Below are positions 4,905 to 18,964 of a stretch of DNA of 54,830 nt, one piece after another. The translations under genes were made by a program, and so were the position numbers. The notes beneath the pieces were generated by a model. The model had not been told where the DNA came from. It saw nothing but the letters and a program-made list of their open reading frames with translations, and ran no database searches. Within the stretch, counting starts at the first letter, position 1. Every line of letters starts with the position of its first letter. The stretch comes from an uncultured Pseudomonadales bacterium (GTDB taxonomy: Bacteria; Patescibacteriota; Microgenomatia; UBA1400; UBA12028): positions 91,012 through 145,841 of the forward strand of contig CAZWPK010000004.1 of NCBI GenBank assembly GCA_964635905.1, given 5' to 3'.

Positions 4905-4981
4905 CGGGGTGTGGCTCAGATGGCTAGAGCGCCTGCTTTGGGAGCAGGAGGTCCCCAGTTCGAGTCTGGGCACCCCGACCA
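4905..4981 (+). tRNA. tRNA-Pro(TGG)
   Basis: Acceptor CGGGGTG/CACCCCG, CCTGC-TTTGGGA-GCAGG, GTTCGAGT, ends ACCA. Confidence 0.97.
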
Positions 4982-6504
4982 TTTAAGACAAGTGGGTCTT
5001 TGAGCAGGGTATCAAAGGGTTCTTTTAGCCTGTACATCTTCACTTTTTCTTCATCAATCCATAAGTTCAAGAAAATAATTCTGACAATTTGGTCTTTGAC
5101 TTCGGGTGTGCCTGCTTTGACAGATAATCCAGCGTTTTTAGACAAGTTCAAGAAGTCTTCCAGCGTTAACACGTCCTGTTCTAGGTCAGGCATGGCTTCC
5201 TTGAGTTTGGTGATTTCTGCCTCCAGTTGGGACTTTTGATTGTCCAGTTCTTTCACTCGTTCCTCACCAATCTTTCTGACTGTCGAGCCTATTTCCTGCT
5301 TGATGACTTGGAGAGCGGTTGTTCGCAACTCATTGTCAGTAGCTTTCAGGTGTCCTTGCTTGGAGTGCAGTTCAACCTCAAGTTTGGCTTTCTGCTTAGT
5401 TAGCACGTCAGTCATTTCTTGCAGGTAAATTTGATAATCTTCCTCAGTGAAGTTGAGTCCATCCTTGAGAAACTCATACAACCAATCAAGCACAACTTTC
5501 ACTCTGACTGATTTCTTAGCTCGTTTGCACCCTGTGGTTTCACACCTGAAGTTAAGATACCGTTTGCCACTCCCACCAGTGGATGGACCAACAGTCATAT
5601 TGCCATCACAAAACGAACATTTTACAAAGGACTTAAAGGGGTAAAAAGTATAGCGGTGAGTGTTAATTGGCATCAGTCGAGTTCTAGTTTGGGTTTGGAT
5701 TTGGTAAAACTCTTCCTCACTGACCGCAGGTACAAAGTCATACTTGGTACGCAAATCAATCTGGTCATCAGCTTGTACCAATACACCAAAGTAAAACGAA
5801 TCTCGGAAGATGATACTCAAGATACGCTTGTCCATGTTCACTTTGCGTCCTGTAGCTTTAATCAAGCGGTGGTAGCCAAGAGAGTTGATTGTTTGGGCAA
5901 TTTTTTCCAGTGACTCACCTTTAAGCTTCATCTGCCATGCTTCCTTGATAAGTTCATGGTTATTACCATCAGGTTGATATCTACCAAACTCATCAATCAC
6001 ATATCCATGTTTAGGAATGTGACTCCTGCCTTCACTAGCTTTTCTGACCATCCCACGAGTCACGTCAGCAGAGAGTTTGTCTGAGTATTGTTTGGAAAGC
6101 ACAAAAGCAAGTCCCAGCATCATCAAACCATTTGCATCTCGAGTGAAGTGGTGAGTAACAAACTTTAAGTCCTTGATGATGTCCTCATCAATCATATCAA
6201 TGACTTCGCCACCTTCTTTCATGTTGCGAGCAAGGCGGTCAGGATTCCAGCACAGAATCCCATCGTATTTACCAACCTGAATATCTTTGAGCATCTGCCG
6301 AAAAACAGGTCTTTTACCAGGTTTCTTAGCGGACTTCTGTTCTGTCAGTGGAGAGCCAACAATGGTCAAATTGAGGCGTTTAGCAAGCTGGAGACACTCG
6401 GCTATTTGGTCAGGAATAGACCGAGCTTGACGCTCTGGGTCATCGGTAGATTTGCGAGCGTAGAGGACATATTTGAGCTTGGTGTGGTCAACTTCATACT
6501 CCAT
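4924..6504 (-). CDS. large serine recombinase 1 (526 aa in integrated state; last codons read antisense through tRNA-Pro)
   Basis: Resolvase catalytic YARKST..RQ..SI..Q, DRLARN, recombinase domain, Zn ribbon CSFC...CETTGC, coiled coil; ATG at 6504 matches paralog start. Confidence 0.95.
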   Translation of the reverse strand: MEYEVDHTKLKYVLYARKSTDDPERQARSIPDQIAECLQLAKRLNLTIVGSPLTEQKSAKKPGKRPVFRQMLKDIQVGKYDGILCWNPDRLARNMKEGGEVIDMIDEDIIKDLKFVTHHFTRDANGLMMLGLAFVLSKQYSDKLSADVTRGMVRKASEGRSHIPKHGYVIDEFGRYQPDGNNHELIKEAWQMKLKGESLEKIAQTINSLGYHRLIKATGRKVNMDKRILSIIFRDSFYFGVLVQADDQIDLRTKYDFVPAVSEEEFYQIQTQTRTRLMPINTHRYTFYPFKSFVKCSFCDGNMTVGPSTGGSGKRYLNFRCETTGCKRAKKSVRVKVVLDWLYEFLKDGLNFTEEDYQIYLQEMTDVLTKQKAKLEVELHSKQGHLKATDNELRTTALQVIKQEIGSTVRKIGEERVKELDNQKSQLEAEITKLKEAMPDLEQDVLTLEDFLNLSKNAGLSVKAGTPEVKDQIVRIIFLNLWIDEEKVKMYRLKEPFDTLLKDPLVLNGRGAQTRTGDLLLPKQAL

Positions 6505-6661
6505 CACACTCGATTATCCCACGAAAAAACAAAAACAGGAGTCCACACCATGCTTTTCCTGTACTCCAACCAGCCCCCCCTTGACCCGTTTCTGCCACAG
6601 CAGGGGTGGCACTACAAACTATCAAAACCTAACATTAACTAATATATAGAAAGAGCCTATA
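6505..6661 (-). promoter_or_regulatory. conserved 157-nt region upstream of LSR1 with two hairpins and a -10-like GATAAT
   Basis: Aligns by eye to 17208-17364; hairpins at 6594-6610 and 6536-6561. Confidence 0.55.
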
Positions 6662-6715
6662 GTATATGACTTTTGTGGTGATGTCACCGTACTCACTGCG
6701 TTATATAATACCTAC

Positions 6716-7162
6716 ATGGGAATCAACGAACGAACAGCCAATATTGACTTCTTGTCTTCTACATTTGATGACATACTCACAATGTATCCTGCTGAGTCAT
6801 TAAAGTTGATGTTCCGTGGTGCTAGAAATGACAACTCGCCTTCTGGTGGAAACTGGTGGTCTGAAGATGCCTATTATGCATTGGGTTGCAGCAGTGATAA
6901 CAGACTTTTTGTAACAGCTGTACCGATAGATTTAATTGCGGAGTTGCAAGAAACTAATCAACTGACTAATGAAAGCGACCACGAAGGAAACAAATGGAAA
7001 TTTAGAAGATTCAATTTACCTCATCGACAGGTTAATGATGCCGAACTGACTGAGTTACTTAGTCAAGCTCGTATAACTAAGCTAGGTGCAACGCGAGCTA
7101 TAAAAACCAGACTTGGAACACAGGCAAGAATTGATTTCTCAAAAAGTGTTATTGTCGGGTAA
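6716..7162 (+). CDS. cargo hypothetical protein, weak ADP-ribosyltransferase-like motifs
   Basis: 148-aa ORF; LMFRG...GNWWSEDAYYA pattern; no counterpart in element 2. Confidence 0.55.
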   Translation: MGINERTANIDFLSSTFDDILTMYPAESLKLMFRGARNDNSPSGGNWWSEDAYYALGCSSDNRLFVTAVPIDLIAELQETNQLTNESDHEGNKWKFRRFNLPHRQVNDAELTELLSQARITKLGATRAIKTRLGTQARIDFSKSVIVG

Positions 7163-7171
7163 ACGGCATGA

Positions 7172-7441
7172 CTACTGTTTTAACAGTTCAAACACCTTCT
7201 TCTTGATATACCTGAAAAAGGCTAAAAGCCGATTCTTCTTGAGTAAGACATACAGAATCTCACGTCCCTGACTGTCCCGCATTGCTATTGCATTTCTGAC
7301 ACCATCCTCACCGAGCTTCTGTTGCTCGTCTATAGCTTTGAGTGCCATCATGATATCAGCACGATTGGCATGAGGTCGTTTGAGCTGTTCTGTCAGTAAT
7401 CGCTTATTCAGTGCTAGGTCTTCTTCAAAGGAAAGTGCCAT
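7172..7441 (-). CDS. conserved small element protein (89 aa), candidate directionality factor/regulator
   Basis: 53 of 89 residues identical by manual alignment to 16424..16711; shared upstream GGTACAAT..CGGTCAAATTATG. Confidence 0.85.
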   Translation of the reverse strand: MALSFEEDLALNKRLLTEQLKRPHANRADIMMALKAIDEQQKLGEDGVRNAIAMRDSQGREILYVLLKKNRLLAFFRYIKKKVFELLKQ

Positions 7442-7479
7442 AATTTGACCGCTATTGTACCTTTTTTACCCGAGAAAGC

Positions 7480-7626
7480 CTAGTACAGGTACACCAACCC
7501 CGCATTGTTTTCACCACGAATGAAGTAGTCATCAGAGATATCCGATTGTGTAACAATTTGAAATGGCTTCCAAAATGCTACAATCGCATTGGCAAGGCGT
7601 TCAAAGTTTGTCGCCTTCACTCGACA
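7480..7626 (-). other. displaced C-terminal coding segment of LSR1 (CRVKATNFERLANAIVAFWK...GENNAGLVYLY*)
   Basis: Ungapped 48-codon match (21/48 identical) to 16239..16385; in frame with LSR1 across the GTCG core. Confidence 0.7.
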
Positions 7627-7660
7627 CATATCGCGTTCTTGAGAGCTTGTAAACAGCTCT
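7609..7660 (+). repeat. junction A: element-1 left arm + CGACAC core + cassette right arm
   Basis: 7609-7626 is the exact reverse complement of 16239-16256 (18 nt); 7622-7660 matches 8179-8217 at 34/39. Confidence 0.85.
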
Positions 7661-7697
7661 TGCTTCTTGTTTTTCTTCCTATAAAATATCCCTAATT

Positions 7698-8117
7698 ATG
7701 TCAAACGTTGAAGCAACTAAATCAAAGTTAGCTGGAAAACATTTCCTGGTGGTGGAAAGTGGCGATGCTGATTGGAAATTTGTATTTGGGAATTACTTTG
7801 ATGTAATGGATGCTACTTTCGACTATGTAGATGAAGAAGATTTTTTAGGATCAGGGATGGATGAGGTTGATACTTATGTAGGAAAATTTGATGGCATCGT
7901 CTTACATTTAGTAGCAGGTGGTTATTTCGATACTTATAAAGAAAAAGCTTTGGAAACAAAACTGAAAGGACTTCCAGTAGTTGTTACAGCATCAGCAACA
8001 TTTACGCCTGACGAAAAAGTAATTGAATTAAACTCACTGGGTATTGGAGTTGTAATAAAAGGCAAAGACTTTAACTTCAACTCAATTTTGGAATTGTTAG
8101 CTGCGCAGATGAGCTAA
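7698..8117 (+). CDS. stand-alone atypical receiver (CheY-like) protein
   Basis: FLVVE (b1), FDGIVLHL (b3, His at the Asp position), PVVVTAS (b4), VVIKGK (b5). Confidence 0.65.
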   Translation: MSNVEATKSKLAGKHFLVVESGDADWKFVFGNYFDVMDATFDYVDEEDFLGSGMDEVDTYVGKFDGIVLHLVAGGYFDTYKEKALETKLKGLPVVVTASATFTPDEKVIELNSLGIGVVIKGKDFNFNSILELLAAQMS

Positions 8118-8133
8118 AAACATAGCAACTTAT

Positions 8134-8217
8134 AGGATCATTGATCTGGAAGTGAGTTATTATTTCATTCCATAGATCCGACACATATTGTGTTTTTGAG
8201 AGTTTGTAAACAGCTTT
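8134..8217 (+). repeat. junction B: hairpin left arm shared with C + CGACAC + right arm shared with A
   Basis: 8134-8184 vs 8692-8742 = 46/51; 8179-8217 vs 7622-7660 = 34/39. Confidence 0.9.
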
Positions 8218-8284
8218 GAATTGCTGGTCGTAAATTCTTCTTCCCGACTTTAGTATACGGTAATATAATTGCTGGAGATGATAT

Positions 8285-8683
8285 ATGTCTGCAGAAAAAC
8301 CTGTTGTAGTACTTGTCGATAACAATAAGACTTATCTCGATACAGTGGCTTTGTTTTTTCAACAAACTGGTATGCATGTGGTTTGTTTTTTATCTGATCT
8401 GGGTAGCAATACAGAAGATTTGGTAGATCGGATACAAAAGAATAGTCCCGACATTGTTGTAACAGGTGTTCGTAATCGAATCGACAGAGATGATGGAGAT
8501 ATGAGTGGGATAGTATTGGCAAATGCTCTAAAATCCAAAGGTATTAAAGTTTTAGTAACATCTTCACCAGAATACCAAGGAATAGCTGAGCAAAATGGTT
8601 TACCTTTTATCGGAAAGCATCTTGGAGCACCTGAGTTTGTCAGTCATATTCAAGCACTTATAGGTCTATCCTTTAAATCATAA
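8285..8683 (+). CDS. stand-alone atypical receiver (CheY-like) protein
   Basis: VVLVDNN (b1), SPDIVVTGV (Gly at the Asp position), MSGIVLANALK, VLVTSS, FIGK. Confidence 0.75.
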   Translation: MSAEKPVVVLVDNNKTYLDTVALFFQQTGMHVVCFLSDLGSNTEDLVDRIQKNSPDIVVTGVRNRIDRDDGDMSGIVLANALKSKGIKVLVTSSPEYQGIAEQNGLPFIGKHLGAPEFVSHIQALIGLSFKS

Positions 8684-8691
8684 AATGCTAA

Positions 8692-8756
8692 AGGACTACT
8701 GATCTGGAAGTGAGTTACTATTTCATTCCATAGTTCCGACACTTTTGATATTCTTG
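8692..8756 (+). repeat. junction C: hairpin left arm + CGACAC + diverged right arm
   Basis: 46/51 to junction B left arm; TTCTTG at the same offset after the core as in junction A. Confidence 0.85.
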
Positions 8757-16204: not shown

Positions 16205-16271
16205 GAGAGGATGTTTATGCCCTCGAAAGCGTGCTCTATGTCGAGTGAAGGCGACAGACCTTGAACGCCTT
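16205..16271 (-). repeat. junction D: element-2 left arm + CGAC core + diverged cassette-type right arm
   Basis: Minus strand AAGGCG-N12-CGCCTT-CACT-CGACA followed by GAGGGCATAAACATCCTC, similar to GAGAGCTTGTAAACAGCTC of junction A. Confidence 0.75.
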
Positions 16272-16385
16272 ACAGAAGTGATTTTAGCACGCTGGCAGAG
16301 AGTCGAGTTCACTATTCCCGAATTGATGAATACTGATAACTTCACTCATGGTGAAAATAAGATAGGGCTATCGTATGTGTACTAG
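16239..16385 (+). other. displaced C-terminal coding segment of LSR2 (CRVKATDLERLTEVILARW...GENKIGLSYVY*)
   Basis: Ungapped homolog of 7480..7626; the Met of copy 1 is CTA here; in frame with LSR2 across GTCG. Confidence 0.7.
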
Positions 16386-16423
16386 GATTACTCGACGGAA
16401 ACGGGTACAATGACGGTCAAATT

Positions 16424-16711
16424 ATGCCATCCACACCAGAGGAGAGACTAGCTGAAAACAAGCGATTATTACAGGAGATGCTCAAGAATCCTAAGTATCA
16501 GCGGGCGGAACTTGTCGAAGCACTCAAAGCCGTAAACGAGGAACAAGCTCTCGGTGTCGATGCTGTCCGTAACGCGATAGCCATGCGTAATGCGAAAGGA
16601 CAAGAGATTTTGTATATGCTCCTCAAGAAAAACCGAGTCCTCACCCTTTTCCATAAGATAAAGAAGTGGGTCTTTGAACTAGTGTATAATATGCCTATTA
16701 AATCAAAATAA
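16424..16711 (+). CDS. conserved small element protein (95 aa), candidate directionality factor/regulator
   Basis: Paralog of 7172..7441 (NKRLL, ALKA, VRNAIAMR, EILY.LLKKNR). Confidence 0.85.
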   Translation: MPSTPEERLAENKRLLQEMLKNPKYQRAELVEALKAVNEEQALGVDAVRNAIAMRNAKGQEILYMLLKKNRVLTLFHKIKKWVFELVYNMPIKSK

Positions 16712-16720
16712 GGAGCCAAT

Positions 16721-17173
16721 ATGTCAGAAATCCTTTCAGATTTTGGTAAAGAAGCAAATGAGACACCCAAAGTGACAGCAGATGCTCAACCGCAACCAGC
16801 TACAATTTCTCCAAATAGATTGCAGAGCATTGCAGACTTGATGGCTCAACCTGCTGAATCTACGGATACTCCTGTTGCGAAGACTGAGACACCGAAAGCA
16901 GAAATCTCTGAAGTTTTAGTTCTCAAGCAAGGTTTGAATGCTGTCATAATGCCTGAACTTAGAGACGTATTTAAAGACGAGAGATTTGGTGACTCATTTG
17001 GTGACGTGAGTGCAGAGGTTGCAAGAGATAGGCTCCAAAAGTTTCTTGATGAAATCCAAAAACAAGGTGGTAAAGTCCTTTCTACTGTTAGCCAAATGAC
17101 CAATGAAAATCCTAGTGAAATGAATGGTGATGACCCAAAGCTGACTACGTTCTTTATAGTAGAAAAATCGTAA
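16721..17173 (+). CDS. cargo hypothetical protein
   Basis: 150-aa ORF with AGGAG ribosome-binding site; Pro/Ala/Thr-rich N-terminus. Confidence 0.7.
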   Translation: MSEILSDFGKEANETPKVTADAQPQPATISPNRLQSIADLMAQPAESTDTPVAKTETPKAEISEVLVLKQGLNAVIMPELRDVFKDERFGDSFGDVSAEVARDRLQKFLDEIQKQGGKVLSTVSQMTNENPSEMNGDDPKLTTFFIVEKS

Positions 17174-17207
17174 AGACTTACGCTAAAGTAGGTAGCATCT
17201 TTTATGT

Positions 17208-17364
17208 TATAGGGCTACATTCTCCTGTTAGGTATTGTTAGATGTTTGAAGTCTCTAGCCCTACCCCTCTTGTGGCTAAAACACCCTAAACCAGTGGCTT
17301 TTGCTATAGGAAGAGCGTGGTGTGCATACCTGATTTTGTTTTTCCTAGTAGTACAATCAGCGGT
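17208..17364 (+). promoter_or_regulatory. conserved 157-nt region upstream of LSR2 with hairpins and -10 TACAAT
   Basis: Aligns to 6505-6661; TACAAT 17352-17357, 7 nt before ATG. Confidence 0.55.
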
Positions 17365-18945
17365 ATGGATTACGAAGTGGATACCTCCAAACTCAAATAC
17401 GTCATGTATGTCCGTAAGAGTACCGATGACCCAGAGCGCCAAGCTCGCTCCATCCCCGACCAGATTGCGGAGTGCCAGGAGCTCGCTAAACGCCTCAATC
17501 TTACTATCGTTGGGAGGCCTATTGAGGAGACCAAATCAGCCAAGAAACCTGGGAAGCGTCCATTGTTTCGGCAGATGCTTAGAGACCTGACGGCTGGTAA
17601 ATATGACGGTATCCTTTGTTGGAATCCTGACCGCCTGGCCCGAAATATGCGTGAGGGTGGTGAAGTCATCGACATGATTGATGAAGACATCATCAAGGAC
17701 TTAAAGTTTGTAACACACCACTTCACCAAGGATGCAAACGGCTTGATGCTTCTGGGACTTGCCTTTGTCCTCTCCAAGCAATACAGCGACAAATTATCAC
17801 AAGACGTGACTCGTGGGATGGTCCGTAAAGCCAGTGAAGGTCGAAGCCATATACCCAAGCATGGATATGTCATTGATGACAACGGGAGATATCAGCCAGA
17901 TGGACCGAACTTTGACCTCATCAGACAGGCCTGGCAGATGAAATTACACGGTGAGCCACTCGAAAAGATTTCCAATACTATCAATGGTCTTGGGTATCAT
18001 CGCCTCATCAAGTCCACAGGTCGTAAGGTCAATATGGACAAGAGAATCTTGAGTGAATTATTCCATGACTCCTTCTACTTTGGGATGTTGGAGCAAGCGA
18101 GTGAGACGGTTGACCTGCGCACCAAATATGACTTTGTTCCTGCTGTGACCGAGCAAGAGTATGCTCAAGTCCAAGCTCTGACCAGAAGCCGTATCATCCC
18201 ACTCGTCTCACATCGCTTTACCTTCTACCCATTCAAGACGTTTGTTCGCTGTGCATTCTGTGACAACAATATGACTGTTGGTCCTTCGACTGGGAGTACA
18301 GGCAAACGGTACTTAAACTTTCGCTGTGAGACTCCAGAGTGCAAACGTATCAAGAAATCTGTACGGGTAAAAGTAGTCCTCGATTGGTTGTATGCGTTTC
18401 TCGCTGGTGGACTCAACTTCACCGAGGCAGATTACAAACAATATCTAGAGGAGATGACAGATGTCATTACCAAGCAACGAGCGACGCTTGAAGGTGAACT
18501 GCACGCCAAACAAGGATTACTCAAGACGACTGATGCCGAACTCAGGACCACTGCCCTCCAAGTCATCAAACAAGAAGAAGATTCAACTGTCAGACGTATC
18601 GGTGAGGAGCACGTCAAGGAACTGGAGCAACAGAAAGCGCAGCTAGAGACAGAGATTGCCTCTATCAAACAGACCATGCCTGATGTTGCACAGGATGCAC
18701 TTACCTTAGAAGATTTCTTGAACTTGTCAAAGAATGCGGCAGAATCAGTCAAAGCAGGCACTCCAGAAGTCAAAGACCAAATTGTCAGAATTATCTTCTT
18801 GAACTTATGGATTGATGAAGAAAAAGTAACGAAATATCAGGCTAAAGAGCCGTTTCATTCCCTGCTTGCTAACAGGCAACTACCTACTAGTCGGGGTGAC
18901 TGGACTCGAACCAGCGACCTCTTGCACCCCATGCAAGCGCGCTAG
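17365..18945 (+). CDS. large serine recombinase 2 (526 aa in integrated state; tail read antisense through tRNA-Pro(GGG))
   Basis: YVRKST catalytic motif, CAFC...CETPEC Zn ribbon; roughly 75-80% identical to LSR1 by eye, same length. Confidence 0.95.
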   Translation: MDYEVDTSKLKYVMYVRKSTDDPERQARSIPDQIAECQELAKRLNLTIVGRPIEETKSAKKPGKRPLFRQMLRDLTAGKYDGILCWNPDRLARNMREGGEVIDMIDEDIIKDLKFVTHHFTKDANGLMLLGLAFVLSKQYSDKLSQDVTRGMVRKASEGRSHIPKHGYVIDDNGRYQPDGPNFDLIRQAWQMKLHGEPLEKISNTINGLGYHRLIKSTGRKVNMDKRILSELFHDSFYFGMLEQASETVDLRTKYDFVPAVTEQEYAQVQALTRSRIIPLVSHRFTFYPFKTFVRCAFCDNNMTVGPSTGSTGKRYLNFRCETPECKRIKKSVRVKVVLDWLYAFLAGGLNFTEADYKQYLEEMTDVITKQRATLEGELHAKQGLLKTTDAELRTTALQVIKQEEDSTVRRIGEEHVKELEQQKAQLETEIASIKQTMPDVAQDALTLEDFLNLSKNAAESVKAGTPEVKDQIVRIIFLNLWIDEEKVTKYQAKEPFHSLLANRQLPTSRGDWTRTSDLLHPMQAR

Positions 18946-18964
18946 CCAACTGCGCTACACCCCG
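18891..18964 (-). tRNA. tRNA-Pro(GGG)
   Basis: Minus strand CGGGGTG/CACCCCG, CTTGC-ATGGGGT-GCAAG, GTTCGAGT; CCA not encoded. Confidence 0.96.

Follow-up and report, generated by a model that had tools for sequence, protein, structure and literature searches.

A small protein gene kept beside split, tRNA-targeting serine recombinases in Patescibacteria: a candidate directionality factor

Two mobile elements in the window, the whole stretch of 54,830 nucleotides analysed here from an uncultured bacterium labelled Pseudomonadales, both carry a large serine recombinase (LSR) and a small open reading frame (ORF) whose product, P0001 in one element and P0002 in the other, belongs to no described family. 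What does this small protein do, and could it serve the recombinase as a recombination directionality factor (RDF), as the original prediction proposed?

Two compact elements and a recombinase gene split by integration

Each element is 2.65 kb long and is inserted at the 3' end of a tRNA gene, tRNA-Pro(UGG) for element 1 and tRNA-Pro(GGG) for element 2 (Table 1). Each contains one LSR, one replaceable ORF and the small gene, in the same order: a conserved 184-nt stretch, the small ORF, an ORF of ~150 residues, and the LSR. The two recombinases share the Resolvase, Recombinase and zinc-ribbon domains and are 78% identical. The small proteins had been noted as about 60% identical next to a replaced cargo gene, and both claims hold: P0001 and P0002 agree at 53 of 87 positions (61%) without a gap (BLASTP, E 2e-35), and the neighbouring ~150-residue ORFs are unrelated (best E 0.12), differing also in their orientation relative to the LSR. 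Neither the small proteins nor the variable ORFs found a match in Pfam, PHROGs, NCBIfam or PADLOC, and a scan with Rfam returned nothing except the tRNAs. A spare inverted attP is absent from both elements, as it is from four related loci discussed below (L020, L022, L049 and L052).

As dN/dS between close relatives lies at 0.07-0.20, the small ORF is a genuine protein-coding gene under purifying selection. The sole run that may represent RNA, X18, spans only 6562-6912, outside the small ORF. It is labelled 'GENOMIC RNA-Seq' and yields a 351-nt contig, possibly of RNA origin, identical to this interval, which takes in the sequence before the variable ORF of element 1 and part of that ORF.

Table 1. 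Features of the two elements and their tRNA targets (positions in the window).
Feature	Position	Strand	Remarks
LSR1, integrated form	4924..6504	minus	body ends at core 4979-4976; last 17 codons antisense through tRNA-Pro(UGG)
LSR2, integrated form	17365..18945	plus	core GTCG 18890-18893; tail antisense through tRNA-Pro(GGG)
tRNA-Pro(UGG), element 1 target	4905..4981	plus	tRNA found by Rfam
tRNA-Pro(GGG), element 2 target	18890..18964	minus	tRNA found by Rfam
Variable ORF, element 1	6716..7162	plus	148 aa; no family match
Variable ORF, element 2	16721..17173	plus	150 aa; AAGGAG ribosome-binding site; no family match
P0001, small ORF and core gene of element 1	7172..7441 (ATG at 7441)	minus	89 aa; alignment, dN/dS
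P0002, small ORF and core gene of element 2	16424..16711	plus	95 aa; ORF call and BLASTP
LSR1 tail exon	7480..7625	minus	47 codons and stop; crossover core GTCG 7625-7622
LSR2 tail exon	16240..16385	plus	core GTCG 16240-16243; stop 16383-16385
Spacer, element 1	7442..7479	minus	38 nt, restored LSR stop to P0001 ATG; TACAAT 7454-7459
Spacer, element 2	16386..16423	plus	38 nt; TACAAT 16406-16411

The conservation upstream of the small gene appears in the window as inverted repeats (7436-7531/16334-16429 and 7567-7646/16219-16298). Across the ten loci measured, similarity sets in at GTCGAGTGAAGGCGACA, exactly 184 nt before the ATG in all ten, and the flanks beyond this point are unrelated in the alignment of the same loci. 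Most of this stretch belongs to the recombinase: ~146 nt carry the LSR frame on through the shared GTCG core as far as a stop codon, and the other 38 nt form a spacer. The tail thus encoded is a conserved run of 47 residues (RVKATxFERL..IL..W.P...GENKAGLVYLY, then stop), and the LSR1 tail exon also bears the conserved attP arm AGTGAAGGCGACA.AC.TTGAACGCC. Circularisation restores the LSR C-terminus through this 47-codon exon, and the joined form occurs naturally: in two independent sludge metagenomes, X8 and X11, there are contigs that span the predicted attP junction, reading ...LFANWHLPTS up to it and RVKATNFERL...LYLY, followed by a stop, beyond it. Furthermore, a full-length, unsplit LSR with a homologous tail (P0056, in L020) is encoded together with a relaxase on a contig of 23 kb.

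The spacer has the same length in 10 of 10 loci and contains an invariant, -10-like GGTA(C/T)AAT box 12 nt before the ATG. The start codon of P0001 has no Shine-Dalgarno sequence, as opposed to the variable ORF of element 2, and scans for consensus promoters and terminators did not call the conserved -10 boxes. The original prediction had described a conserved promoter-like sequence upstream of the small gene, which in the circle would sit 38 nt downstream of the restored LSR stop. This distance is exact by measurement of the spacer. The conservation is equally real, and the description as promoter-like fits the 38-nt spacer only, the remainder being LSR coding sequence and attP arm.

Several further observations concern these regions. 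In the X8/X11 element, aligned to 7468-7625, the small ORF is near-identical to that of element 1 and the LSR 3' end (LFANWHLPTS) resembles element 2; the host flanks of the window are absent from both runs. Among the assembled contigs of X1 and X2, the wastewater runs that represent the population of the window, neither an attB nor an attP joint was seen; the attP joints stem from other samples. Synonymous divergence within the tail exon is below that of the rest of the element, and the exon contains mosaic blocks (LANAIVA versus LTEVILSC, and GENNAGLVYLY versus GENKMGLVYMY). The left-end module, comprising the tail exon and small ORF, has been exchanged relative to the LSR body (element 1, element 2 and L001-L025).

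A non-coding block of ~160 nt immediately 5' of the LSR start (6505-6680 on the minus strand for element 1; 17190-17364 for element 2) is conserved across 12 elements (alignment A9) and has no match in Rfam. It contains an invariant ACCCCT, a hairpin and T-run reminiscent of a terminator, and a GGTATAAT or GGGATAAT box just 6-8 nt before the LSR ATG; the hairpin and the proximity of this box to the start codon suggest that the LSR mRNA could be leaderless and insulated from upstream transcription. Beyond element 1 (7609-8756), the native tRNA-Pro trailer (CGACACATAT... with a terminator hairpin) repeats at 7622, 8179 and 8737. These repeats recur every 557-558 bp and form a cassette-like array around two unrelated ORFs, 7698..8117 and 8285..8683, each of them single.

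Could the small ORF simply be a further extension of the recombinase? A fusion that joins the small ORF to the LSR tail by frameshift or read-through can be set aside, as the frame of the small ORF is closed 8 codons upstream in most loci. The one protein called as a fusion (P0012) comes from a truncated contig and reflects an isolated frame change, and a check of the frames found no natural in-frame fusion of the small protein to an LSR.

Distribution of the small gene and its wider family

The P0001 family is rare. A set of 5.8 billion proteins contains 9 of its clusters, an exhaustive search of a set of 1.8 billion with the profile met 5 representatives, and JGI metagenomes contribute 6 loci; distinct loci number 15. 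The genomes that carry it are recorded as Patescibacteria, with two MAGs labelled Pseudomonadales. In all 15 loci the small gene shares its mobile element with an LSR, and wherever the contig is long enough it is positioned between the tail exon and the LSR. The tail exon lies 42 nt upstream (stop codon counted) in every locus that extends in this direction, and the LSR lies 0.55-1.15 kb downstream in 12 of the 12 contigs with 0.6 kb or more of sequence on that side. The original prediction had named frequent occurrence apart from LSRs as evidence against itself, and this was not encountered: none of the 15 members is found apart from an LSR, and each is beside one where the contig reaches. 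All these recombinases end in tRNA-Pro(UGG, GGG or CGG). The ORF between the small gene and the LSR varies from element to element and can lie on either strand; because this intervening gene is replaced, the small gene and the LSR are the core of the element, its only two conserved genes.

Do the two core genes evolve in step? Between L008 and L025 the LSRs are 81% identical and the small proteins 50%, and between element 1 and L005 the values are 65% and 68%, respectively. As the small-protein phylogeny conflicts with that of the LSR body, tight co-adaptation is not visible. L004 has an intact small ORF next to an LSR that has lost an internal stretch, in frame, at a microhomology of 10 nt. 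In this locus (6935-7260) the LSR is cut to ~107 residues, the deletion lying between two GCTCAAAGAC repeats (QMLKD / TLLKD); the resulting non-autonomous derivative has intact att ends, tail exon, small ORF and 142-residue ORF at tRNA-Pro(CGG).

The clade is far larger for the LSR than for the P0001-type small protein, with at least 1,478 LSR proteins at E < 1e-30. Among the best 120 of these 1,478 relatives (P0015-P0134), nearly all end in ...SRG plus a few antisense-tRNA codons (SRGERTRTSDL, SRGAGN and SRGGET, for example), for which reason the GTCG core and the split-gene design are likely to extend clade-wide, targeting many tRNA types. Relatives with ~55% LSR identity belong to elements of 6.7 to >11 kb with restriction-modification or other, unrelated cargo, in which the P0001 profile detected no homologue. 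We inspected four such loci for a wider family. In L020, L022 and L049, an ORF of 52-61 residues with the common C-terminus ...LNATTISDNNGGRILL has its stop codon 8-70 nt before the LSR start, the LSR of L020 being the unsplit one. In L052, an 11.5-kb element, a family member adjoins the tail exon and is convergent with it. We call this the LNATTISDNNGGRILL (LNATTISD) family after its own motif; it comprises at least 85 members, none with an annotation.

Are these short proteins relatives of P0001? Comparison of the two profiles with hhalign gave a probability of 84% (E 7e-6) over residues 21-67. The score of 33.8 was reached by none of 200 column shuffles (8.4 +/- 2.4, maximum 17.0), and the reversed profile scored 10.9. 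The notion that the small protein might mimic the lost LSR tail fared differently: a 15-sequence tail alignment scored 9.9 and 7.9 against the two small-protein alignments, which is background, and this comparison doubles as a negative control for the positive match. When 74 sequences are aligned jointly with MAFFT, N50, G59 and I62 prove invariant and D56 almost invariant, and the spacing between these residues is the same. A plain HMM built from the LNATTISD family recognises divergent members of the small-ORF group (E 5e-6 to 1e-4) as well as P0001 itself (0.03), and across the loci every match at E < 0.3 falls within either of the two small-protein families.

Both groups share a core made of an amphipathic helix (L..L...L..VD) followed, at the same spacing, by N-x5-D-x2-G-x2-I-[LY], which in most members of the wider family reads ...LNATTISDNNGGRILL at the C-terminus. 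These core members are acidic (pI ~4.4), only ~50-60 residues long, and without a DNA-binding signature. The P0001 branch, on the other hand, has an additional helix at the N-terminus and a basic, amphipathic one at the C-terminus (KKNR..FFRNIKKKVFEL), which spans residues 68-89 and has a pI of 10.7, and 7 of the 8 branch members computed have a pI of 9.5-10.1. By sequence comparison, therefore, the P0001 family is a divergent, lineage-specific and lengthened branch of a larger, uncharacterised LNATTISDNNGGRILL family, a link that is new here; our literature search found no paper describing these Patescibacteria elements or the small-protein family.

The likeness extends to position. On the circular map, both families adjoin split tRNA-targeting LSR genes, the gene sitting immediately next to the LSR either beyond the tail exon, as in the P0001 branch, or before the LSR start, as in L020, L022 and L049. 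This immediate neighbourhood recurs in five different element architectures, and the gene is retained across LSR identities of 53-100% despite the replacement of cargo.

Structure prediction places the core motif within a helical protein. The AlphaFold2 monomer, of moderate confidence (pLDDT 69, and 69.5 with a deeper alignment, which did not improve it), has N-terminal helices at 5-20 and 27-53, a tight turn with the conserved motif, and two further helices, making four helices and one beta bridge in total, with the C-terminal part the least confident. Searches with this fold met generic helical hairpins only, both in the PDB with Foldseek (best E 2.0) and in BFVD (best E 0.9), and profile searches of PDB sequences returned nothing relevant.

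Possible functions of the small protein

The 15 members beside an LSR, together with remote homologues that adjoin an LSR in four other element types, support a function tied to the recombinase. Of the three roles originally suggested - RDF, repressor or replication helper - the synteny favours the link to recombination, and the 50-60-residue acidic peptides of the core family disfavour the last. With belief and doubt about evenly balanced, we posit that P0001 and P0002 are LSR-binding cofactors, and probably directionality factors. Coiled-coil LSRs generally require an RDF for excision, and this is one reason why such a role seems the most likely; some LSR transposases (TnpX and TndX) need none. 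A second reason is that the RDFs of LSRs, small to mid-sized and often small, have no common sequence or fold, being defined instead by binding the junction of DBD2 and the coiled coil (PMC12286644; bioRxiv 10.1101/2025.05.02.651858). Lastly, an acidic peptide of 50-60 residues is better suited to binding protein than DNA.

How, then, does the small protein compare with known accessory factors? By analogy, the functionally closest would be the LSR RDFs: SPbeta SprB, TP901-1 Orf7, A118/LI gp44, phiRv1 Xis, phiC31 gp3 and Bxb1 gp47. Like these, it has no recognisable domain and is encoded on the same element as an LSR with DBD1, DBD2 and a coiled coil. Neither its sequence nor its fold resembles any solved RDF, which does not count against an RDF function, as RDFs share no fold (PMC12286644). 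Its synteny with the LSR is strict, whereas that of known RDFs is inconsistent, and the setting also differs: the host here is a member of the Patescibacteria, and the elements are not phages, since viral contigs (IMG/VR) contain no homologue of the small protein and no LSR of this clade, with LSR matches at no more than 45% local identity (no more than 31% for longer matches).

A second parallel is the split-integrase layout of Myxococcus phage Mx8 (IntP/IntX), in which, according to Tojo 1996 and Magrini 1999 as cited in PMC6070905, attP lies inside the integrase gene and integration alters the integrase C-terminus. There too a small accessory gene, uoi, adjoins int, on its upstream side. 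However, the Mx8 enzyme is a tyrosine integrase and uoi encodes an HTH protein (PMC6070905), whilst the present elements rely on a serine recombinase and their small protein lacks an HTH. The same holds for excisionases of the winged-helix type (Xis; HTH_17/MerR), which resemble the small protein in being encoded next to an integrase gene: P0001 and P0002 do not match HTH_17 (PF12728) and their predicted fold is all-helical and wingless. We rejected this assignment, given the lack of a Pfam, NCBIfam or PHROG match and the AlphaFold2 model of four helices and one beta bridge. The larger related elements do have a separate excisionase-like gene of the HTH_17/MerR type, encoding 59-65 residues (L022 4135-4332; L052 5179-5358); the mini-elements have none.

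As an RDF, the small protein would assist a 'split' LSR that targets tRNA genes. Going by other RDFs, it would bind the recombinase at the DBD2/coiled-coil junction and turn it away from integrating (attP x attB) and towards excising (attL x attR). The small gene appears to have a promoter of its own, and the leader would be very short, as TACAAT precedes the ATG by only 12 nt and a Shine-Dalgarno sequence is missing; on the circle, moreover, a full-length LSR gene ends 38 nt ahead of it.

The position of this box raises another possibility, which we consider unlikely though worth weighing: that the small protein regulates the genes of the element, as an autoregulator or repressor, rather than acting on the recombinase. 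A conserved -10-like box stands close ahead of the ATG, by a few nt, in each of the core genes, and the proposed targets would be these similar promoters (GGTAYAAT-N1-2-CGG(G)T-ATG) or the 160-nt hairpin and T-run region upstream of the LSR, itself a conserved non-coding block. The basic amphipathic C-terminal helix of the P0001 subfamily could bind nucleic acid. However, neither an HTH nor any other DNA-binding domain is present in the small protein, the core of the wider family is acidic and most of its members stop right after the motif, and a repeated operator-like motif was not found beyond the -10 region.

The RDF reading is itself open to several objections in its simplest form. The integration-dependent swap of the LSR tail could by itself set directionality. 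A constitutive-looking -10 box and a place directly behind the LSR in the circle are not what would be expected of a factor that is absent during integration. The disagreement between the small-protein and LSR-body phylogenies also argues against a simple RDF, as does L004, which keeps the small gene beside an internally deleted LSR. Perhaps the small protein is a subunit of the LSR with a role other than reversing its direction, be it an inhibitor that silences the integrated element or a two-way factor, such as a stabiliser of the tail-less integrated isoform. This is a rather unlikely reading in our estimation, albeit one that draws on the same synteny as the RDF; it fits the operons formed with the LSR in L020, L022 and L049, which imply co-expression in every state, and it fits a tail swap that already confers directionality. 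The small protein's lack of similarity to the LSR tail (hhalign scores at background) counts against it.

Alternatively, the tail and the small protein might act together as a two-part directionality switch, a doubtful extension of the RDF idea. The 47-residue tail, present only on the LSR encoded by the circle, would block or override the cofactor, so that the full-length enzyme integrates. Integration would swap the tail for antisense-tRNA codons and expose the LSR to the cofactor, making excision possible only then; the RDF could be made constitutively and be gated by the recombination state written in the recombinase gene. If this were true, the LNATTISD family would be a general cofactor of more than 1,000 such LSRs in Patescibacteria.

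A function unrelated to recombination, whether as anti-defence or addiction peptide cargo or in the replication or maintenance of the 2.65-kb circle, is improbable: the lack of a known domain and the attP form without host flanks in X8 and X11, which makes an extrachromosomal life possible, would allow for it, but the gene stays next to the LSR as cargo is replaced and LSR identities range so widely, PADLOC gave no match, and a replication helper in particular is very unlikely because the core members are 50-60-residue acidic peptides, hardly the makings of a replication initiator.

Implications for directionality in split recombinases

Where does this leave the small gene? Should it have no effect on recombination, its strict synteny would suggest that it serves these elements in some other core capacity. 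If, on the other hand, it encodes an LSR cofactor, it would be the missing second component of a very large group of serine recombinases that target tRNA genes in ultra-small bacteria and have apparently gone undescribed. Cognate LSR-RDF pairs are wanted as reversible genome-engineering tools (PMC12286644), and the elements, with no more than two proteins and two short sites, would offer a minimal setting for tests of how direction is chosen by a recombinase whose C-terminus changes with its integration state.
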